Shown: one piece after another, positions 9,487-34,120 of the stretch
Layout: the number at the start of each line of letters is the position of its first letter
How positions within the stretch are numbered: position 1 is the stretch's first letter
Assembly: GCA_036268155.1 (NCBI GenBank)
Contig: DATAUQ010000042.1
Location: 1 to 54,022, forward strand
Reading direction: 5' to 3'
DNA length: 54,022 nucleotides
Source of the DNA: Verrucomicrobiia bacterium
GTDB lineage: Bacteria; Verrucomicrobiota; Verrucomicrobiia; Limisphaerales; UBA11358
Program-made: the position numbers and the translations under genes
The notes under the pieces: model-generated
Seen by the model: the letters and a program-made list of their open reading frames with translations, nothing else
Told to the model about the DNA's origin: nothing
Database searches by the model: none

Positions 9487-10935
9487 ATGCCCACCGCCAC
9501 CGAGACAATCGAAGATTTGGTCAAGACGGAATACAAATACGGCTTCGTCACCGATGTCGAAACCGAGTCCACGCCGCCGGGTTTGAGCGAGGACACCATC
9601 CGCCTGATTTCGCGCAAGAAAAACGAACCCGAATGGCTGCTCGACTGGCGGCTCAAGGCGTTTCGCCATTGGCTCACGATGCCTGAACCGACGTGGCAGT
9701 TCGTGAAATATCCGAAAATAAATTTTCAGGACATCACTTATTTTTCCCAGCCCAAGCCAAACAAAAATGCGCCGAAAAGTTTGGACGAAGTTGATCCAAA
9801 ACTTTTGGAGACTTACGAAAAGCTCGGCATTCCGTTGCGCGAACACGCCAAGCTCGCCGGCGTGGCGGTGGACGCGATTTTTGATTCCGTCTCGGTCGGC
9901 ACGACGTTCCGCAAACAGCTTGCGGAAAAAGGCGTCATTTTTTGTTCGTTCACCGAGGCGGTGCATGACCATCCCGAACTCGTCAAAAAATATCTCGGCT
10001 CGGTCGTGCCGCACACGGACAATTATTATGCCGCGCTGAATTCCGCAGTTTTCACCGACGGTTCGTTCTGCTACATCCCGAAAGGCGTGCGTTGTCCGAT
10101 GGAGCTTTCGACTTATTTCCGCATCAACGCCGCGAAGTCCGGCCAGTTCGAGCGCACACTCATCATCGCGGACGAAGGCGCGCACGTCAGCTATCTCGAA
10201 GGTTGCACCGCGCCGATGCGCGATGAAAATCAATTGCACGCCGCCGTCGTCGAACTCGTCGCGCTGGACAATGGCGAAATAAAATACTCAACCGTGCAGA
10301 ATTGGTATCCCGGTGACGAAAATGGCAAGGGCGGCATTTACAATTTCGTGACGAAGCGCGGCTTGTGCAAAGGCAAAAATTCAAAAATCTGCTGGACGCA
10401 AGTTGAGACCGGGTCGGCGATCACATGGAAATATCCGAGCTGCATTTTGCTCGGCGACAATTCCGTGGGCGAATTTTATTCCGTCGCCGTGACGAACACT
10501 TATCAGCAGGCCGACACCGGCACGAAGATGATCCACATCGGCAAAAACACGAGCAGCACGATCATTTCCAAGGGCATTTCCGCCGGTCACGGACAGAACA
10601 GTTATCGCGGCCTCGTGAAGATCCAGAAAAGCGCGACGAACGCGCGCAATTTTTCGCAATGCGATTCCATGCTCATCGGCAACAAATGCGGCGCGCACAC
10701 GTTCCCCTATATCGAAGTGAAAAACACGTCGGCGAGCGTCGAGCACGAAGCTTCGACCTCGAAGATCGGCGAGGACCAGATTTTCTATTGCAACGCGCGC
10801 GGCATCGCGACGCAGGACGCGGTCAACATGATTGTGAACGGCTTCTGCAAGGAAGTGTTCAAGGAACTGCCGATGGAATTCGCCGTCGAAGCACAGAAAC
10901 TTCTGGGCGTGAGTTTGGAAGGAAGTGTGGGTTGA
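9487..10935 (+). CDS. sufB: Fe-S cluster assembly scaffold SufB
   Basis: The full-length match includes [23 protein letters not shown]...YSTVQNWY...[21 protein letters not shown]...[15 protein letters not shown]. Confidence 0.95.
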
Positions 10936-10939
10936 TTTT

Positions 10940-11379
10940 AGCCACAGATGGACTCAGATGAAACACAGATAAAAGCGGCGAAGGATTATTCGCTACAGCC
11001 AATCACCGAACAATTAATTGGTGCGGCGTTTGAAGTTCATAATGTGCTTGGCTACGGATTTTTGGAAAAAGTTTATCAGCGGGCAATGCAGGTTGAATTG
11101 CAATCGCGTGGCGTCAAAGTTGAATTGGAACCGTTGATAAAAGTTCAGTTCAAAGGCGTGATTGTCGGCGATTACGCGGCGGACTTGCTTGTTGCCGATA
11201 AAATAATTGTGGAATTAAAAACTGACGCAACGTATCAGCCGGTTCACGAAGCGCAACTATTGAATGAGCTTCGCGGCACTGGAATTCGGCTTGGTTATCT
11301 CATTAACTTTGGACGAGAACGCGTCGAATACAAACGTATGGTTTTTTAATCTGTGTTTCATCTGTGAAAATCTGTGGCT
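10940..11379 (+). mobile_element. Palindromic 'CACAGAT' element carrying a GxxExxY gene
   Basis: The 31-nt arms AGCCACAGATGGACTCAGATGAAACACAGAT (10940-10970) and ATCTGTGTTTCATCTGTGAAAATCTGTGGCT (11349-11379) are inverted copies, about 26/31 identical. The same arms recur at 30511-30615. Confidence 0.65.
10948..11349 (+). CDS. GxxExxY protein (PD-(D/E)XK nuclease superfamily, PDDEXK_3-like)
   Basis: It contains the signature GFLEKVY and a nuclease-like D...E-x-K (DYAADLLVADKIIVELK), and is ~130 aa long. The start codon and first ~8 codons lie inside the left repeat arm. Confidence 0.8.
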   Translation: MDSDETQIKAAKDYSLQPITEQLIGAAFEVHNVLGYGFLEKVYQRAMQVELQSRGVKVELEPLIKVQFKGVIVGDYAADLLVADKIIVELKTDATYQPVHEAQLLNELRGTGIRLGYLINFGRERVEYKRMVF

Positions 11380-11394
11380 AAAAATTTTAGAAAA

Positions 11395-12159
11395 ATGAGC
11401 AAAACGATATTAGAAATCAAAAACCTCTCGGCGGGCGTCGAGGGCAAACAAATCCTCAAGGGCGTCAGCCTCACCATCAACGCCGGCGAAGTCCACGCCG
11501 TCATGGGCCCGAACGGCTCCGGCAAAAGCACGCTGGCCGCCGTGCTGGCCGGCCGCGACGGTTACAACGTGACCGGCGGCGAGGTGCTTTATTGCGGCAA
11601 GAACCTGCTCGACCTCGACCCCGAGGAACGCGCGCGCGAAGGTCTGTTCCTCGCGTTCCAATATCCGGTCGAGATTCCCGGCGTGAACAGCACTTATTTT
11701 CTCAAGGCCGCGTTCAACGAAATCCGCAAGCATCGCGGCGAGCCGGAACTCGACGCAATTGATTTTCTCGCGCTCGTGAAGGACAAGATGAAGCTGCTCG
11801 AACTCAAGGAAGATTTGCTCAAGCGCTCGGTCAACGAAGGTTTTTCCGGCGGCGAAAAAAAGCGCGCGGAAATTTTCCAGATGGCCGTGCTCGAACCCAA
11901 GCTCGCCATCCTCGACGAAACGGATTCCGGCCTGGACATTGATGCGCTCAAAGTCGTCTCGCACGGCGTCAACGCCCTGAAGCGCGCCGACAACGCGCAG
12001 CTTGTCATCACGCATTATCAGCGGCTGCTGAATTTCATCGTGCCGGATTTTGTGCACGTCCTGGTGGACGGCCACATCGTGAAAACCGGCGGCAAGGAAC
12101 TCGCGCTCGAACTCGAGGCGAAAGGTTACGATTGGATTTTGAAAACGGTCAATGCGTAA
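11395..12159 (+). CDS. sufC: Fe-S cluster assembly ATPase SufC
   Basis: It has the Walker A motif GPNGSGKST, the ABC signature FSGGEKKR and the Walker B motif LAILDETDSGLD. I prefer the ATG at 11395, because the listed GTG at 11374 lies inside the repeat arm. Confidence 0.95.
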   Translation: MSKTILEIKNLSAGVEGKQILKGVSLTINAGEVHAVMGPNGSGKSTLAAVLAGRDGYNVTGGEVLYCGKNLLDLDPEERAREGLFLAFQYPVEIPGVNSTYFLKAAFNEIRKHRGEPELDAIDFLALVKDKMKLLELKEDLLKRSVNEGFSGGEKKRAEIFQMAVLEPKLAILDETDSGLDIDALKVVSHGVNALKRADNAQLVITHYQRLLNFIVPDFVHVLVDGHIVKTGGKELALELEAKGYDWILKTVNA

Positions 12160-16467: not shown

Positions 16468-17823
16468 ATGACACAAACGCTAGAAAAAAAAAACGGTGAC
16501 CTGACCGTGACCGAACCGTTCCTCGAAAAATTCCGCCACTTCGAGTCCGGCGCGAAATCGTCGCTGCTGTCGTTCCGCAAAGCCGGCCTTGCGCTATTTG
16601 CTGAACTTGGTTTCCCGACGTTGCAGAATGAAGATTGGCGTTTCACAAACGTCGCGCCGCTCGCGAAGCTGCCGTTTGCGCCGCTGTTTGAAGCGCCCGC
16701 CGTCAACGGCGCGGAAACCAAAGCGTTGAATGAATTTGCTTTTTCAAAACTTTCGGGCACGCGACTGGTTTTTGTGAACGGCCATTATTCGCCAAAGATT
16801 TCGACCGTCGAAAAACTTCCGGCGGGCGTGAAGGTCGGCAATCTGGCGGCGGCTTTGACTTCCGATGCCGTGTTGGTGGAAAAATATCTGGGCCGTTGCA
16901 CGCTTGCGCAGGACAATGCGTTCGCTGCGTTGAACCAGGCGTTTTTTCTCGACGGCGCGTTTGTCCATGTGCCAAAAGGCGTGGATGTCGCCACACCGAT
17001 CCAGTTGGTTTACATCTGTTCGGCCAACGAAACCGGCGCGACGGTGCAGCCGCGCAACTTGATCGTCGTCGAGGCGAACAGCCGCGTGACGATTGTGGAA
17101 AGTTACATCACGACCACGGACAATGCGTATTTTACGAACGCGGTGACGGAAATTTTCGCGGGCGACAATGCGTTCGTCGAGCATCTGAAATTTCAGGACG
17201 AGGCGCAGGCGGCATTTCACATTGCGGCGATCCACGGCGAATTTGGGCGGGCGAGCAATGTGAACATCCATTCGTTCGCGCTCGGCGCGAAATTGTCGCG
17301 CAACAGCATCCGCACGAAGCTCGCGGGCGAAGGTCTTGAGTGCATCCTCAACGGACTTTACCTCACGCGCGGCGAGCAATTGGCCGACCATCACATGATT
17401 GTCGAGCACGCGCAGCCGAATTGCGCGAGCCACGAGTATTTCAATGGCATCCTTGACGACAAATCAAAGGGCGTCTTTCACGGACGAATTCTGGTTCAGC
17501 AAATCGCGCAGAAAACCGATGCGAAGCAGACGAATAAAAATCTGCTGCTCTCCGATGACGCGACCGCCGACACGAAGCCGCAACTGGAGATTTACGCCGA
17601 CGATGTGAAATGCACGCACGGCGCGACCATCGGGCAATTAAATGACGAGAGCATTTTTTATCTGCGCACGCGCGGCATCGGCACGGACATGGCGCGGCAG
17701 ATGTTGATCCACGCCTTCGCCGGCGAGATCATCGAGCGCATCAAGTGCGAACCGGCGCGCGAAGCCGTTGACAAGCTCGTGTGGGATCGCCTCGAAGCGA
17801 ATCCGCATTTGGCCGCAAAATAA
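16468..17823 (+). CDS. sufD: Fe-S cluster assembly protein SufD
   Basis: The C-terminal beta-helix region ...HMIVEHAQPNCASHEYFNGILDDKSKGVFHGRILV...KPQLEIYADDVKCTHGATIGQLNDESIFYLRTRGI is characteristic of SufD. Confidence 0.9.
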   Translation: MTQTLEKKNGDLTVTEPFLEKFRHFESGAKSSLLSFRKAGLALFAELGFPTLQNEDWRFTNVAPLAKLPFAPLFEAPAVNGAETKALNEFAFSKLSGTRLVFVNGHYSPKISTVEKLPAGVKVGNLAAALTSDAVLVEKYLGRCTLAQDNAFAALNQAFFLDGAFVHVPKGVDVATPIQLVYICSANETGATVQPRNLIVVEANSRVTIVESYITTTDNAYFTNAVTEIFAGDNAFVEHLKFQDEAQAAFHIAAIHGEFGRASNVNIHSFALGAKLSRNSIRTKLAGEGLECILNGLYLTRGEQLADHHMIVEHAQPNCASHEYFNGILDDKSKGVFHGRILVQQIAQKTDAKQTNKNLLLSDDATADTKPQLEIYADDVKCTHGATIGQLNDESIFYLRTRGIGTDMARQMLIHAFAGEIIERIKCEPAREAVDKLVWDRLEANPHLAAK

Positions 17824-17905
17824 TTTGCCACAGAGTCACAGAGACGCCGAGAAAAACTGAGAAATTAAATTTTTAACTCTGTGCCTCTGCGTCTCTGTGG
17901 CAAAT
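17823..17905. repeat. REP-like 'CACAGAG' palindromic hairpin filling the sufD-sufU spacer
   Basis: ATTTGCCACAGAG (17823-17835) pairs with CTCTGTGGCAAAT (17893-17905). Both arms continue with CACAGAGACGC/GCGTCTCTGTG-type units. Confidence 0.7.
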
Positions 17906-17911
17906 TGAATC

Positions 17912-26505: not shown

Positions 26506-27750
26506 ATGGAGACTGAAAATTCATCCACCAACGGCGACGAGCCGCCTTCGCGCAGTTCGTTACAAACGCTCAAAGAATTCAAATCTGCGGGACGCGGCTT
26601 TTGGAGCGACGTTCCTGATTCGGATTGGAACGACTGGAAATGGCAGTTGAAACACCGCATCACGACGGCGGAGCAATTGCAAAAATTTCTGCCCACTCTT
26701 ACGCCCGAAGAATTTGCGGGCGCGAAACTCGCGAATACAAAACTCGCGCTTGCCATCACGCCGTATTTTTTCAACCTGATTGATCCGGCGGATGAAAATT
26801 GTCCGGTCCGGCTGCAAGTCATTCCCAAGCTCGCCGAATCCCACACCGCGCCGTGGGAGATGAGCGATCCCGTCGGCGAAGATTCGCACTCGCCCGTGCC
26901 GGGACTTGTGCATCGTTATCCCGACCGCGTTTTGTTTTTGGTGACGGATCGCTGCGCCTCTTATTGCCGTTATTGCACGCGCTCGCGGCTCGTGAGCAAT
27001 GCGAGCGGCTACGATTTTCATCCCGAATTCGACAAGCAGATCGCCTACATCGCCGCGCATCCCGAAATCCGCGACGTGCTTTTGAGCGGCGGCGACCCGC
27101 TTTTGTTGAGCGACGACAAGCTGGAAAATCTCTTGAGCCGCCTGCGCGCGATTCCGCACGTTGAATTTCTGCGCATCGGTTCGCGAATCCCGACCTTTTT
27201 GCCGCAACGCATCACGCCCGAACTTTGCGCGATGCTGAAAAAATTTCATCCGCTGTTCATGAGCGTCCACTCGAACCATCCGCGCGAACTCACGACGGAA
27301 GTGCGCGACGCGCTGGGCCGCCTCGCCGATGCCGGCATTCCGCTCGGCAACCAGAGCGTTTTGCTCAAGCACGTCAACGACGACGCGACCGTAATGAAGG
27401 CGCTCGTCCAGAAACTTTTGATGTGCCGCGTGAAGCCGTATTATCTTTACCAGTGCGATTTGATTTCCGGCTCGGCCCATCTGCGCGCGAGCGTGCGCCA
27501 GGGCATCGAGATCATGCAGCAATTGCGCGGACACACGACCGGCTACGCCGTGCCGCAATACGTCATTGACGCGCCCGGCGGCGGCGGCAAAGTGCCAGTC
27601 AATCCAGAATACGTCTTGAGCCACAACGCCGACCGCGTGGTGCTGCGCAACTACGAGGGAAAAATTTTCGAATATCCCGAAGCCGCCGATGGCACGCCGC
27701 TCTCCAAACCGCCGAAAGAAATTGAAGAGCCGGAGCTTTGCAAGTGTTGA
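26506..27750 (+). CDS. kamA: KamA-family radical SAM aminomutase (lysine 2,3-aminomutase-like)
   Basis: It has the radical SAM cluster CASYCRYCTRS, GGDPLLL, and a PLP-binding-region pattern. The ~415-aa length is typical of KamA rather than the shorter EpmB. Confidence 0.85.
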   Translation: METENSSTNGDEPPSRSSLQTLKEFKSAGRGFWSDVPDSDWNDWKWQLKHRITTAEQLQKFLPTLTPEEFAGAKLANTKLALAITPYFFNLIDPADENCPVRLQVIPKLAESHTAPWEMSDPVGEDSHSPVPGLVHRYPDRVLFLVTDRCASYCRYCTRSRLVSNASGYDFHPEFDKQIAYIAAHPEIRDVLLSGGDPLLLSDDKLENLLSRLRAIPHVEFLRIGSRIPTFLPQRITPELCAMLKKFHPLFMSVHSNHPRELTTEVRDALGRLADAGIPLGNQSVLLKHVNDDATVMKALVQKLLMCRVKPYYLYQCDLISGSAHLRASVRQGIEIMQQLRGHTTGYAVPQYVIDAPGGGGKVPVNPEYVLSHNADRVVLRNYEGKIFEYPEAADGTPLSKPPKEIEEPELCKC

Positions 27751-27922
27751 ACCGCGAACCACGCGAAATACGCGAACGGTTTTCAACGTAAAACTTCTGA
27801 CACGAATTCCACGAATTCACGCAAATTAAAAGCCTGTAAGGCTGACAGATAATAGCCCAGGGCAAACGCAGTGCCGCCCTGGGTTAAACGTCAAAAATTT
27901 CCAAGCCCTGTAAGAGCGGCAG
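27750..27922. repeat. Left composite inverted repeat flanking the Mrr-like orphan
   Basis: It has three sub-motifs: A at 27750-27778, B at 27799-27822, and C at 27831-27922 (containing the CCCAGGGC...GCCCTGGG hairpin). All three recur inverted at 29164-29328. Confidence 0.7.
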
Positions 27923-27967
27923 AAGTCTCGACAATGAATCGCGGAAGACGTAAAAGATTGTCCGACT

Positions 27968-29152
27968 ATGGCACTCACGGAACTTTGGAAAACCGCGCAT
28001 AAAGAAATTCAAGACAAGCACGTCCAGCAAGTCATTGGATTTGCTGGCGACGGTAAACTTCGCGACGGCGGGGCTGCTTCAAAAGAATTCCGTGATTTCC
28101 TCGCGCTTGTTCCATCCAATTTTCTTTCTCGATACGCAAATGACTGTTTGACGGATAAATTCGATAACAGCGGATTGGCATTGCAAGATGTCATCAATGA
28201 GGTTGGAACACGTCTTGGATTTCGCGTCGAGCAAGGCCGTTATCGTGGGACGCAGGGCGAGATTGGTTTCGATGGCCTCTGGATTTCGCCAGATGAAAAT
28301 GGACTCGTTGTTGAAGTTAAAACGACCGATGCTTACCGGATAGATTTGGAAACGGTTGCGACCTACCGGCGCAATCTGATTGCCGATGGGCGGATTAAGC
28401 AAACCAATTGCTCCATCCTGATTATCGTTGGGCGCACTGACACGGGTGATCTTGAAGCTCAAGTTCGCGGTTCTCGTCACGCGTGGGATATTCGGCTTAT
28501 CAGTATTGATGGGCTGCTTCGTCTCATGCACCTCAAAGAAGAATTGGACGACCCGAAAATCATGGGTAAAATTCGTCAAGTCCTGACGCCTCAAGAATTC
28601 ACAAAAGTAGACGGAATCATTGACCTTGTCTTTTCAACCACGGCAGACGTTAAGAAAGAGCAAGAACTTACGGAAGTAGCTGACGAAGAAGAAGACGAAC
28701 AGCACAAGACGAAGTTCACTCCACTCAATTTTCGCGATGCGTGCGCAATCAGAGTTCAAAAGCATCTTGGCCAGCCGTTGGTCAAACGATCTTCTGCCGT
28801 TTACTCATCGCCAGATGAAAATCTGGCTGTCGTTTGTATTAACTCACGAGAGTATAAAAACGCCAAGCGTTCAGGTCATTCGGGGTTTTGGTTTGCCTTT
28901 CATCCTCATCAGCGAGATTTGCTTCAGAATCATAAGCAGACATTTGTTGCTCTTGGATGCGGTTCGGCAGATACCATTCTTCTAATTCCTGGAAAGATAT
29001 TTATCAAATGGTTGGACCGATTCCATAAAACCGAACGTGACGACAGATATTATTGGCATATCCGAATTCACAAAGACAAAGAAGGCTATTTGTTGCGAGT
29101 TAAAAAAGGCGCGGATGCTGTTCGGCTTAACGAGTATTTGCTAAAAAACTGA
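27968..29152 (+). CDS. Two-domain orphan: N-terminal Mrr-like PD-(D/E)XK nuclease core plus an unassigned C-terminal module
   Basis: GEIGFDGLWISPDENGLVVEVKTTD gives D...E-x-K, followed by CSILIIVGRTD as in Mrr_cat. An acidic linker (EVADEEEDEQ) follows, then a C-terminal ~150 aa (HSGFWFAFHPHQ...YYWHIRIHKD) that I cannot place. The gene is AT-richer than its neighbours. Confidence 0.55.
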   Translation: MALTELWKTAHKEIQDKHVQQVIGFAGDGKLRDGGAASKEFRDFLALVPSNFLSRYANDCLTDKFDNSGLALQDVINEVGTRLGFRVEQGRYRGTQGEIGFDGLWISPDENGLVVEVKTTDAYRIDLETVATYRRNLIADGRIKQTNCSILIIVGRTDTGDLEAQVRGSRHAWDIRLISIDGLLRLMHLKEELDDPKIMGKIRQVLTPQEFTKVDGIIDLVFSTTADVKKEQELTEVADEEEDEQHKTKFTPLNFRDACAIRVQKHLGQPLVKRSSAVYSSPDENLAVVCINSREYKNAKRSGHSGFWFAFHPHQRDLLQNHKQTFVALGCGSADTILLIPGKIFIKWLDRFHKTERDDRYYWHIRIHKDKEGYLLRVKKGADAVRLNEYLLKN

Positions 29153-29163
29153 AAAGATAATTT

Positions 29164-29328
29164 CTGTCGCCCTTACAGGCTTAAATTTTTTGGACGATTA
29201 ACCCAGGGCGGCGCGCTGCTTGCCCTGGGCTATTTTCTTTCGGGCTTACAGCCCTGTTTAATTCGCGTTCGCGTGTTTGGCGTGGTTCGCGGTTGAAATT
29301 CTCCGCGTTAATCCGTGTAATTCGTGTC
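29164..29328. repeat. Right composite inverted repeat flanking the Mrr-like orphan
   Basis: It holds reverse-complement copies of block C (29164-29254), motif A (29266-29294) and motif B (29305-29328). Confidence 0.7.
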
Positions 29329-29403
29329 AAAAACTTTGTGCCTTTGTGTCTTGGTGGTTAAATTGAAATTTACTTCCGCGCATTTTTCTGCCAGATTGTT
29401 TCC

Positions 29404-29851: not shown

Positions 29852-30532
29852 ATGTTCCGTGAATCGCTCCAGACCAAAACCGCGCGGCTGAAAAAAATCA
29901 TCGCCGGTTTCCAAAAGACTTATCCCGATGCGCACTGCGAGCTGACTTACGCGAACCCGCTCCAATTGCTCGTCGCCGTGATCCTTTCCGCGCAATGCAC
30001 GGACAAGCGCGTCAACCTCATCACACCGGAATTGTTCAAAAAATATCACACCGCAAAAGATTTCGCGGACGCGCCGCGCGCGGAACTGGAGCAGTTCATC
30101 AAGTCCGCCGGATTTTTCCGCAGCAAGGCGAAGAACATCCAGAATTGCTGCCACAAACTCGTCGAGCTTCACGCCGACGAAGTGCCGCGCACGATGGAGG
30201 AATTGATCCAGCTCGACGGCGTCGGGCGCAAGACGGCAAACGTCGTCCTGGGCAACGCGTTCGATGTGGTGGTCGGCGTCGTCGTGGACACGCACATGAT
30301 GCGATTGTCGCACCGGCTCGGTTTGGTCACGGAACGGACGCCGGAAAAAATCGAACTCGCGCTGATGAAGTTGCTGCCGCAGAAATATTGGCTGGATTTC
30401 AGCCACTGGCTCGTCTGGCACGGACGCCGTCGCTGCTTCGCGCGCAAGCCAGATTGCGCGAATTGTGAAGTGCTGAAATGGTGTCCGCGAATCGGGGTGA
30501 AAGAAGTTTTAGCCACAGATGGGCACAGATGA
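29852..30532 (+). CDS. nth: Endonuclease III (DNA glycosylase/AP lyase)
   Basis: It has the HhH-GPD motif (LDGVGRKTANVVL), catalytic VDTH, and the 4Fe-4S cluster loop CFARKPDCANCEVLKWC. The last ~7 codons and the stop lie within a repeat arm. Confidence 0.92.
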   Translation: MFRESLQTKTARLKKIIAGFQKTYPDAHCELTYANPLQLLVAVILSAQCTDKRVNLITPELFKKYHTAKDFADAPRAELEQFIKSAGFFRSKAKNIQNCCHKLVELHADEVPRTMEELIQLDGVGRKTANVVLGNAFDVVVGVVVDTHMMRLSHRLGLVTERTPEKIELALMKLLPQKYWLDFSHWLVWHGRRRCFARKPDCANCEVLKWCPRIGVKEVLATDGHR

Positions 30533-30615
30533 AACACAGATAAGGTATCCGCAGATTTCGCTGATTGGCGCAGATAAATTTTCCATCTGTGTTTCATCTG
30601 TGTAAATCTGTGGCT
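30511..30615. mobile_element. Cargo-less (MITE-like) 105-bp copy of the 'CACAGAT' palindromic element
   Basis: The arms AGCCACAGATGGGCACAGATGAAACACAGAT (30511-30541) and ATCTGTGTTTCATCTGTGTAAATCTGTGGCT (30585-30615) are almost identical to the arms around the GxxExxY gene. Only 43 nt lie between them. Confidence 0.7.
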
Positions 30616-30617
30616 GA

Positions 30618-31298
30618 ATGAATTGGCTTCTTCTCAATTCCGGCAAATGCGACGCGGCGTTCAACATGGCGCTGGACGAAGCGTTGCTCGAAAATGTTTC
30701 GTTGCTCGGCAAACCGGTTTTGCGTTTTTATGGCTGGACTGAACCAGCAGCAACATTCGGCTACTTCCAAAAATTTTCTGAAGTCGAGCGCGCGACACAT
30801 TTGCGTCCGCTGATTCGCCGTCCGACGGGCGGCGGTATCGTGCCGCATGACGCGGACTGGACTTACAGTTTTGTCGTTCCGCCAAATTACGAATGGTATT
30901 CGCTGAAGGCGATAGAAAGTTACCGTCGCATCCACGAATGGATTCAAAGCGCGTTCACAAAATTAAAAATCGAAACCGAACTTGCGCCATGCTGCAAAAA
31001 AACTTTGCCCGGCCAGTGTTTCGCCGGCCACGAAAAATTTGATTTGCTCTGGCACGGGAAAAAAATTGCGGGCGCAGCGCAGCGGCGGAATAAATCCGGT
31101 TTATTGATTCAAGGCTCGGTTCAGCCACCGCCGATAAAAATTGTTCGCGATGATTTGGAAAATGCGATGCGCGAAGTCGCGTGTGAAAAATTTAAGGTTG
31201 AGTGGCGTGAATTTTCGCCGGACGAAAAGCTGCTTTCGCGCGCGGAGAAATTCGCATTGGAAAAATATGTGCTGACGAGTTACAATCAAAAGCGTTGA
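30618..31298 (+). CDS. Biotin/lipoate A/B protein ligase family protein (lipoate-protein ligase / octanoyltransferase-like)
   Basis: AFNMALDEALLE...LRFYGW...TFGYFQ...RRPTGGGIVPHD...GKKIAGAAQRR matches the BPL_LplA_LipB catalytic domain. Confidence 0.8.
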   Translation: MNWLLLNSGKCDAAFNMALDEALLENVSLLGKPVLRFYGWTEPAATFGYFQKFSEVERATHLRPLIRRPTGGGIVPHDADWTYSFVVPPNYEWYSLKAIESYRRIHEWIQSAFTKLKIETELAPCCKKTLPGQCFAGHEKFDLLWHGKKIAGAAQRRNKSGLLIQGSVQPPPIKIVRDDLENAMREVACEKFKVEWREFSPDEKLLSRAEKFALEKYVLTSYNQKR

Positions 31299-34003: not shown

Positions 34004-34009
34004 AACAAA

Positions 34010-34091
34010 TTTTGAGTTTTAAGTTTTTAATTTTTAGTTGAAGCGCGTGGCATCAGCTTCAACTAAAAACTTAAAATTAAAAATTCAAAAC
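34010..34091. repeat. AT-rich long hairpin (REP-like / terminator-like)
   Basis: A perfect 14-bp stem TTTTTAGTTGAAGC (34031-34044) / GCTTCAACTAAAAA (34056-34069) is present. The flanking arms extend imperfectly with TTTAAG/TTAAAA units. Confidence 0.6.
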
Positions 34092-34120
34092 TTCCTGCGC
34101 ATTTGGCACATTGAACCGCG

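Follow-up and report, generated by a model that had tools for sequence, protein, structure and literature searches.

A GxxExxY nuclease gene framed by heptamer inverted repeats and placed just after host stop codons: a candidate genetic element between sufB and sufC of a Verrucomicrobiia bacterium and at other operon junctions

A GxxExxY gene cassette between sufB and sufC

We analysed a stretch of 54,022 nucleotides from a Verrucomicrobiia bacterium (contig DATAUQ010000042.1 of assembly GCA_036268155.1), referred to here as the window, in which sufB and sufC are separated by a short cassette composed of a gene for a 133-aa GxxExxY protein and two inverted-repeat arms. The cassette had been described earlier in a sequence-only reading of the same DNA, the coordinates and anatomy of which, for the arms, the open reading frame (ORF), sufB and sufC, matched ours in every detail. 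The features of the locus are:

9487..10935, + strand: sufB, upstream host gene (NF008773, E 1e-277; PF01458), with its TGA stop codon at 10933-10935
10936..10974, + strand: left arm of the inverted repeat, 39 nt as delimited by the repeat finder, with the ATG at 10948 inside it
10948..11349, + strand: GxxExxY / PD-(D/E)XK nuclease gene, 133 aa (TIGR04256, PF13366)
11345..11383, + strand: right arm of the inverted repeat, with ATCTGTG heptamers at 11349, 11360 and 11370
11395..12159, + strand: sufC, downstream host gene (TIGR01978, E 9e-107)

The sufB stop codon lies 12 nt upstream of the cassette ATG. Four T's follow the sufB TGA, and are followed in turn by the left-arm core AGCCACAGATGGACTCAGATGAAACACAGAT at 10940-10970; the right-arm core ATCTGTGTTTCATCTGTGAAAATCTGTGGCT occupies 11349-11379, and the sufC ATG at 11395 is 15 nt beyond it. 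The repeat finder gave 39-nt arms that are 87% complementary and 370 nt apart. Each arm contains three heptamers, the starts of which are spaced 10 and 11 nt apart, those of the left arm being CACAGAT (10943-10949), CTCAGAT (10953-10959) and CACAGAT (10964-10970). The gene is embedded in the repeat at both ends. Its start codon (10948-10950) falls within the left arm, which encodes residues 1-9 of the protein and so does supply the ATG and the first ~8 codons, as had been proposed, and its TAA stop codon (11347-11349) overlaps the inner end of the right arm. The 133-aa nuclease gene is the sole ORF between the arms, again in agreement with the earlier description. The cassette leaves the sufC leader AAATTTTAGAAAA intact, and this leader is conserved in relatives with and without insertions.

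The arm pattern, with up to 3 mismatches allowed (<=3), was found three times in the window as against 0.00 expected from 100 shuffles, and no other GxxExxY gene was found in the 54-kb window. In the predicted fold of a 476-nt stretch the two arms pair with each other (z = -6.4). The G+C content at third codon positions (GC3) of the cassette gene is 0.43, as compared to 0.71 for sufB and a range of 0.71-0.76 for the two host genes sufB and sufC; the composition of the cassette gene is foreign relative to both host genes. No promoter-like or terminator-like site was found within the cassette on the + strand.

The gene and its arms recur at other operon junctions

Five homologue clusters were chosen by protein similarity alone, the close homologues examined coming from related genomes or metagenome bins. 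Arms flanked the gene in all six homologue sets (the window and these five), with 0-2 mismatches at 27 positions. Armless copies, named earlier as a refuting condition, were thus not met with among the close GxxExxY homologues examined in related genomes. The five junctions occupied are:

Window: sufB-sufC junction, co-oriented
P0004: junction between a GFO_IDH oxidoreductase gene and a DegT aminotransferase gene, co-oriented
P0062: cdsA-dxr junction, co-oriented
P0151: cdsA-dxr junction in a lineage with different neighbours, co-oriented
P0091: HIT-phoH junction, co-oriented
P0032: junction between the prephenate dehydrogenase (PDH) gene and aroA, co-oriented

The upstream stop codon lies 11-15 nt before the ATG in all six sets, and the gene is always on the strand of both its neighbours; in the protein-selected sets the downstream gene begins ~40-50 nt past the stop codon of the cassette gene. 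When a host gene was called from a stop codon near the element together with high GC3, 9 of 10 independent contexts outside suf were seen to have a same-strand high-GC3 ORF that ends 7-36 nt upstream. Among the fetched loci, which amount to 1.1 Mb, every GxxExxY gene abuts such arms. Since six of six protein-selected sets carry the arms and zero matches are expected by chance, the association of gene and arms is not a chance one. These data show that the gene and its arms form one heritable unit, which sits just after host stop codons in many operons and in the orientation of the host genes.

Constraint on the gene and on the arms

Among six clade-1 copies the nonsynonymous divergence (dN) is 0.06-0.15 and the synonymous divergence (dS) is saturated, dN/dS being ~0.03-0.08 where it could be computed. 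Identity at fourfold-degenerate sites is 0.29-0.51 in these copies, which is near random, and identity at the 27+27 specified arm positions is 0.94-1.00. With scrambled fourfold sites, arms that are 94-100% identical and a low dN/dS, gene and arms must therefore each be strongly constrained; the near-random state of synonymous sites likewise means that the cassette copies are old.

We then compared the two arms of 71 pairs with each other. One-sided deviations numbered 268 as against 19 compensated double changes, the latter being 9.4 +/- 3.4 when partners were shuffled, and the triplet that separates the first two heptamers, a variable one, was complementary in only 8 of the 71 pairs. The constraint on the arms is thereby shown to act on the primary heptamer sequence more than on pairing. 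Such preservation of the heptamers points to recognition by a protein over a purely structural stem.

The nuclease protein

The 133-aa protein scored 130.9 bits against TIGR04256 GxxExxY (cut-off 35, E 3e-38) and 127 bits against PF13366 PDDEXK_3 (cut-off 22, E 6e-37). Its assignment, by the motif GFLEKVY and by PD-(D/E)XK-type residues, had been made correctly from the letters alone; the motif is G37-F-L-E40-K-V-Y43. Alignment of 61 diverse homologues revealed that E40, Y43, D79, E89, K91 and Q103 are invariant, and that the family consensus after the ExK motif is QLLNY, i.e. a QxxxY motif. An AlphaFold2 model built from 61 diverse representatives reached a predicted local distance difference test score (pLDDT) of 91.9, whereas an input of 29 near-identical sequences gave a pLDDT of 46 and was unusable. 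Confidence is low for residues 1-10, and the only disordered part of the model is the arm-encoded N-terminus. The modelled alpha-beta-beta-beta-alpha-beta core superposes on solved PD-(D/E)XK members. Foldseek returned a probability of 1.0 to 4ic1 (Cas4), 3syy and 3slp, with query-normalised template modelling (TM) scores of 0.46-0.52; the best structure matches were Cas4 SSO0001 (4ic1, E 5e-5), LHK-Exo, lambda exonuclease and MGME1, with Hjc and tRNA-splicing endonucleases ranking far below Cas4. As judged from the model, it is to Cas4, RecB and lambda exonuclease, as one branch of the PD-(D/E)XK superfamily, that the protein is closest. Conservation of the catalytic residues, together with a dN/dS of ~0.03-0.08, argues for enzyme activity.

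The nuclease had no sequence match to any PDB chain, and no PADLOC defence model, PHROG or phage-genome homologue matched it. The function of the family was entered as "Unknown" in a 2012 survey of the PD-(D/E)XK superfamily (PMC3424549). The family is large, with 15,479 representatives at 50% identity (E <= 1e-3), and the window protein has homologues in >5,000 clusters at 90% identity. The best 120 homologue clusters are 133-134 aa long and 84-92% identical to it, and a second search, by a profile of six sequences, recovered that close clade again. Some members (P0178, P0179 and P0181 among them) are ~250-295 aa long with two matched stretches, i.e. tandem two-domain GxxExxY proteins.

Turnover at the sufB-sufC junction of relatives

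We collected 80 metagenome loci with close relatives of SufC, 71 of which include both gene ends. Plain spacers of 0-43 nt separate sufB from sufC in 14 of these 71 (15 nt in L183, for example); with these spacers, and with the recurrence of the unit at other junctions, the idea of a self-contained, start-codon-bearing cassette in a normally contiguous operon stands. Many of the 71 spacers hold gene-less hairpins, of CACAGAT, CACGGAT, CGCAGAT, CACGAAT and GAGGACG types. Full GxxExxY cassettes are present in 8/71, all of them co-oriented, and elements of ~190 nt in 4/71 (L209, L147, L151 and L164). The latter four retain both arms and the last ~100 nt of the ORF, and their breakpoints differ; they are therefore internal-deletion derivatives of the full cassette. 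Thus, the gene is shown to decay in place by internal deletion while the arms persist. In 11/71 the cargo is of other kinds, among them PIN, ParE, Mrr-like and metallophosphoesterase genes.

In a close relative (L143; 94.8% nt identity in sufB and 96.5% in sufC) the same site holds a gene-less hairpin. Its right arm and flank are identical to those of the window and its left arm is different, which fits a conversion tract and fits a deletion as well. Gene-less hairpins are also found between sufB and sufC in two genome bins (L043 and L058), one of them flipped. Gain or loss of the gene inside the resident hairpin at this junction is recent; loss by deletion is documented, and gain is conceivable. 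The cassette itself had been read as dropped into the operon. That it is a cassette holds, but, given the gene-less hairpins at the same site in these three relatives, it may have been inserted as a whole unit or its gene may have been gained or lost inside a resident hairpin.

The sufB-sufC spacer is hypervariable between strains (L142-L221), which can have 95-99% identical SufC and entirely different inserts. These inserts include PIN/ParE toxin-antitoxin-like genes, unknown ORFs and at least five hairpin families. At one locus (L207:84-690) CACGGAT-type arms surround an unrelated 176-aa ORF that starts in the arm with MDTD; no family match was obtained for this ORF.

Gene-less hairpins

A second copy of the hairpin, one without the gene, is present in the window:

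30508..30618, + strand: gene-less copy of the same hairpin, with arms at 30508-30541 and 30585-30618

Its 43-nt interior contains a nested CGCAGAT-type half element, and its RNA fold has a predicted energy of -58 kcal/mol (z = -9.3). The nested second hairpin of CGCAGAT type is common to at least 11 loci, including the window at 30512, and occurs in the longer gene-less forms. An ORF at 29852-30532, endonuclease III-like as called by eye, has its stop codon, a TGA, within the left arm of this gene-less hairpin, and the arm stop adds ~7 arm-encoded residues to it. Among the gene-less hairpins examined, a host ORF terminates at an in-frame TGA inside the arm in nine loci.

A scan with the arm pattern over one genome per species yielded at least 120 loci, nearly all in Verrucomicrobiota bins. 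Among the 120 arm loci listed, 11 have a GxxExxY gene at the arm and 109 do not; gene-less hairpins outnumber gene-bearing ones by about 9:1. Strict arm pairs among the same loci (n=71) enclose either 9-137 nt (65 pairs) or 378-414 nt (6 pairs), and many seemingly solo arms have degenerate partners. A long high-GC3 ORF ends within 30 nt of the boundary in 48 of the 65 gene-less hairpins. The orientation of gene-less hairpins to the host gene is unbiased (7 vs 6), whereas gene-bearing cassettes are always co-oriented, and CACAGAT-type arms are also found between convergent genes. Eleven viral contigs carry an arm and none of these carries a GxxExxY gene. The arms had no Rfam match at the gathering threshold, the empty copy giving matches at chance level only. 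The association of arms and gene put forward earlier thus holds in one direction: the gene is always armed, but the arms are not exclusive to the gene, as the 109 gene-less loci among 120 selected by their arms make clear. A one-way link of this kind, with the gene always between arms and the arms sometimes with a gene, is the pattern of autonomous and derived elements.

Several arm-bearing contigs (L028, L031, L037 and L083 among others) come from bins labelled Bifidobacteriaceae, Klebsiella, Dehalococcoidia, Planctomycetia and Acidobacteriota; these odd labels could reflect mis-binning or real horizontal spread.

Other repeats were seen in the window. A gene-less hairpin at 17822-17906 belongs to another heptamer family (GCCACAGAGTCACAGAGACGCC...) and has 35-nt arms that are 80% complementary; its CACAGAG heptamer also flanks GxxExxY genes in Bacteroides and Bernardetia records. 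At 34007-34093 a palindrome that is AT-rich and near-perfect has arms of 38 nt (84% complementary) and an 11-nt loop, and is built of TTTTAAG-like repeats. A 394-aa ORF (27968-29152), with a D...EVK stretch noticed by eye and no Pfam, NCBIfam or PDB match, lies inside a composite inverted repeat (27747-29337). This repeat comprises CGCGAA-heptamer arms (27747-27778 and 29266-29297), CACGAAT-type arms (27790-27822 and 29305-29337) and inverted matches to Rfam Acido-Lenti-1 (27830-27883 on the - strand and 29202-29255 on the + strand). The ORF looks like a second, larger cargo gene between heptamer arms.

Arms and GxxExxY genes across clades and phyla

The window protein shares 33-100% identity with the GxxExxY clades represented in the fetched loci, and all copies but the most divergent begin within an arm, their N-termini including MDTDE and MNTDE. 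The exception is L083 (protein 38% identical), the gene of which has arms of another periodic motif, AACAAAG, on its two sides. At L050, from a Dehalococcoidia bin, the left arm is a perfect CACAGAT one and the protein is 49% identical to that of the window.

Eight loci in plasmid and chromid records from other phyla were also inspected. Here too the GxxExxY genes are co-oriented with both neighbours and separated from them by tight gaps, and the arm-flanked proteins are 34-41% identical to the window protein. Sphingomonas has the gene at its fabD-fabG junction between 25-nt arms of CGCGAAG heptamers (92% complementary). The arms in Bacteroides finegoldii are 30 nt long and 90% complementary, with CACAGAG, CGCAGAG and CACGGAG heptamers, and those in Bernardetia, of CACAGAGA, are 28 nt long and 86% complementary. 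In Treponema one CACGGAT stands on either side of the GxxExxY gene, and in Gemmatirosa a complete hairpin of three CGCGGAT heptamers abuts it. Across phyla the heptamers share a CRCRGA-like core. Distant GxxExxY genes of Bacteroidota, Alphaproteobacteria and Spirochaetota are flanked by heptamer arms related to those of the window.

A proposed nuclease cassette with its cis sites and gene-less derivatives

The reading that we favour, with a probability of about 0.45, is that of a nuclease cassette for which the arms act as cis sites and which is accompanied by gene-less derivatives. The cassette would be a compact, promoterless unit, in which a minimal Cas4/RecB/lambda-exonuclease-like gene is placed between inverted arms, each made of three CRCRGAK-type heptamers one helical turn apart. 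The heptamers would be the recognition sites of the nuclease itself, and the enzyme would cut at or near the hairpin or its cruciform. Repair of the break, templated by a filled copy and using the conserved arms as homology, would then amount to homing-like copying without target-site duplication. The cassette gene is presumably expressed by read-through transcription, its translation being coupled to termination of the upstream host gene, where the terminating ribosome would open the stem that holds the ATG. The gene-less hairpins would be decayed or non-autonomous derivatives.

Translational coupling is suggested because the ATG follows the host stop codon by 11-15 nt and lies inside the stem, and an expression by read-through and coupled to termination would fit the absence of a promoter- or terminator-like site on the + strand. 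Recombination initiated by the nuclease would fit the absence of target-site duplication, the occurrence of filled and empty alleles, the frozen arms and the recombination-type nuclease fold. The route of movement, homing-like or by transposition, is one that we infer from these features.

A wider claim, which we make tentatively and hold to be possible, is that GxxExxY proteins may be the enzymes behind a class of bacterial genetic element that spans phyla and has so far gone unrecognised. The nuclease would recognise heptamer hairpins, and would propagate or maintain itself and the far more numerous gene-less hairpins just after operon stop codons. Such a class would be the PD-(D/E)XK counterpart of the REPIN-RAYT systems, in which repetitive extragenic palindromic (REP) doublets are associated with a REP-associated tyrosine transposase (RAYT).

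Several observations weigh against the nuclease-cassette reading. The link of nuclease and arms is, at the level of the sequences compared, a correlative one. Copies at different sites are old, with saturated synonymous sites, so that mobility is not demonstrably recent; the cdsA-dxr copy appears to have been inherited vertically across lineages, and deletion by itself would be enough to explain the filled/empty polymorphism. As homology for recombination, arms of 30-39 bp are short. Protein and arm co-vary only loosely: the proteins of L050 and L062 are 49-57% identical to that of the window and yet have arms of CACAGAT, those of closer clades being of CACGGAT. Arms of the same type can carry an unrelated ORF, as in L207. 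In the cross-phylum set, direct repeats flank the gene instead in two of the eight loci (Fusobacteria and Prevotella), and no flanking repeats were found at a third, that of Persicobacter.

An alternative would place the action of the arms in RNA. The stem in the operon transcript would insulate the gene, gate its translation or be processed by RNase III, as are the intervening sequences of 23S rRNA, and the nuclease would act in trans on something other than the arms, in repair, defence or addiction for example. The predicted stems are indeed strong (z = -9.3 and -58 kcal/mol for the empty copy, z = -6.4 for the full one), and the cassette is always found on the sense strand of operon spacers that are transcribed, its ATG lying within the stem. 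The very low dN/dS would suit a protein with a cellular role, and the same spacer hosts toxin-antitoxin genes in other strains. A structural stem, however, should tolerate compensation, whereas here the arms are frozen in primary sequence, mismatches are mostly one-sided and the triplet is usually non-complementary. RNA pairing also leaves the 10-11-nt heptamer periodicity unexplained and does not account for gene-less hairpins in both orientations (7 vs 6) or for arms between convergent genes; neither PADLOC nor Rfam gave a match. We regard a role in RNA as unlikely.

The hairpins could also be an independent family, similar to REPs or to miniature inverted-repeat transposable elements (MITEs), that is moved by another, unseen enzyme, the GxxExxY genes being passengers that land or survive in hairpin loops. 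That ~90% of the hairpins among the arm loci listed have no gene would be expected of such a family, as would the presence in the window of several heptamer families with no GxxExxY gene nearby. The nesting of a second hairpin family in the loop of the first (at least 11 loci) and the unrelated 176-aa ORF that starts in a CACGGAT arm of L207 would fit it as well. Against this, the first 9 and last 2-3 codons of the gene are built from the arms across clades, down to 33% protein identity, with all but the most divergent copy starting in an arm. The gene-arm link, moreover, persists across phyla whose other repeats differ, and holds for all GxxExxY genes in the 1.1 Mb of fetched loci. We regard the passenger reading, too, as unlikely.

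We find it improbable that the pair is a domesticated, vertically inherited partnership of the REPIN-RAYT kind, in which the nuclease maintains hairpins of benefit to the host (in mRNA stabilisation or chromosome organisation, for example) and no selfish spread takes place. RAYTs are typically single-copy and the GxxExxY family is known as multi-copy, here at many sites across genomes, and the turnover of the sufB-sufC spacer between strains with 95-99% identical flanks fits selfish flux better. This is so despite the saturated dS with a dN/dS of 0.03-0.08, the persistence of the cassette between cdsA and dxr in lineages with different neighbouring genes, and the position of hairpins at gene 3' ends (48/65 within 30 nt of a stop codon), all of which would suit domestication. 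Chance adjacency of gene and repeats in a repeat-dense genome, for which only the several unrelated hairpin families of the window speak, can be dismissed as ruled out by zero expected matches, by arms in 6/6 protein-selected sets and by recurrence of the architecture across phyla.

Comparison with known systems

Literature searched for GxxExxY, PDDEXK_3, PF13366 and TIGR04256 gave incidental mentions only, and that on REP/RAYT and on intervening-sequence proteins held nothing that describes these arms. Within this literature, the architecture of the cassette and its generality appear to be undescribed. GxxExxY / PDDEXK_3 is among the larger bacterial families that are annotated by motif alone, and its function now becomes a directly testable question, namely whether the nuclease binds and cuts its arms. 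If true, the nuclease-cassette reading would account for one class of the hairpin repeats that lie between genes in Verrucomicrobiota. There is a bearing on annotation too, as small genes that split sufBC, fabDG or cdsA-dxr are easily misread as operon members.

An integron gene cassette was considered and rejected: the arms are on both sides, RYYYAAC / GTTRRRY cores are lacking and the cassette stands alone between housekeeping genes. The intervening sequences of 23S rRNA likewise have a small ORF in a long inverted-repeat stem within a transcribed essential gene region. However, the cassette occupies an mRNA spacer, whereas the ORFs of intervening sequences encode four-helix-bundle proteins and the sequences are excised by RNase III.

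With Cas4, RecB and lambda exonuclease the nuclease shares the motif order E...D...ExK...Q(xxxY) and its best structural matches. It differs in having ~115 structured residues, no cysteines for an iron-sulphur cluster and a query-normalised TM-score of ~0.5, and no CRISPR or recombination partners are present near the cassette. Homing endonucleases (T4 seg/mob, I-Ssp6803I) resemble it in that a small gene for a nuclease sits tightly between conserved genes and in their orientation, and in that filled (window) and empty (L143, L043, L058) alleles exist at the same site with no junction duplication; size and fold class are those of the known PD-(D/E)XK homing enzyme I-Ssp6803I. Known homing endonucleases, in contrast, target a unique site and have no dispersed inverted-repeat bracket, whereas with the arms described here any hairpin of the genome would become a target.

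The likeness to MITEs and to transposons with terminal inverted repeats (Correia and ERIC elements) lies in terminal inverted repeats of ~30-40 nt, short gene-less forms that outnumber the long one, intergenic co-transcribed locations, internal-deletion derivatives and copies at unrelated sites. Against this, the cassette copies are anciently diverged at synonymous sites yet have frozen arms, and the long form is only ~440 nt. No target-site duplication was found at any junction, where flanks of TTTT...AAAA or TTAG...CTAA extend the inverted repeat, and no DDE or other known transposase is encoded in the long form, its only ORF being the 133-aa PD-(D/E)XK domain.

REPIN-RAYT systems share with the cassette an enzyme gene placed between two inverted copies of a short repeat. 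In both, that repeat is also present, many times over, as inverted doublets without a gene, which fold into hairpins at the 3' ends of genes; both also show a long-term, largely vertical persistence with purifying selection on the enzyme. The enzymes differ, since a RAYT is an HUH Y1 transposase (IS200/IS605-like) and here a PD-(D/E)XK protein is encoded; no HUH Y1 transposase was found in the cassette, for which Pfam and NCBIfam gave only PDDEXK_3 / GxxExxY. The repeats differ as well, REPs being self-palindromic with a GTAG or CGTC tag and the arms being three direct heptamers. In addition, the cassette gene has both start and stop codon inside the arms and occurs at many sites, unlike the single-copy RAYT. 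The cassette is akin to the known hairpin repeats that have an associated enzyme, and may constitute a class of its own.

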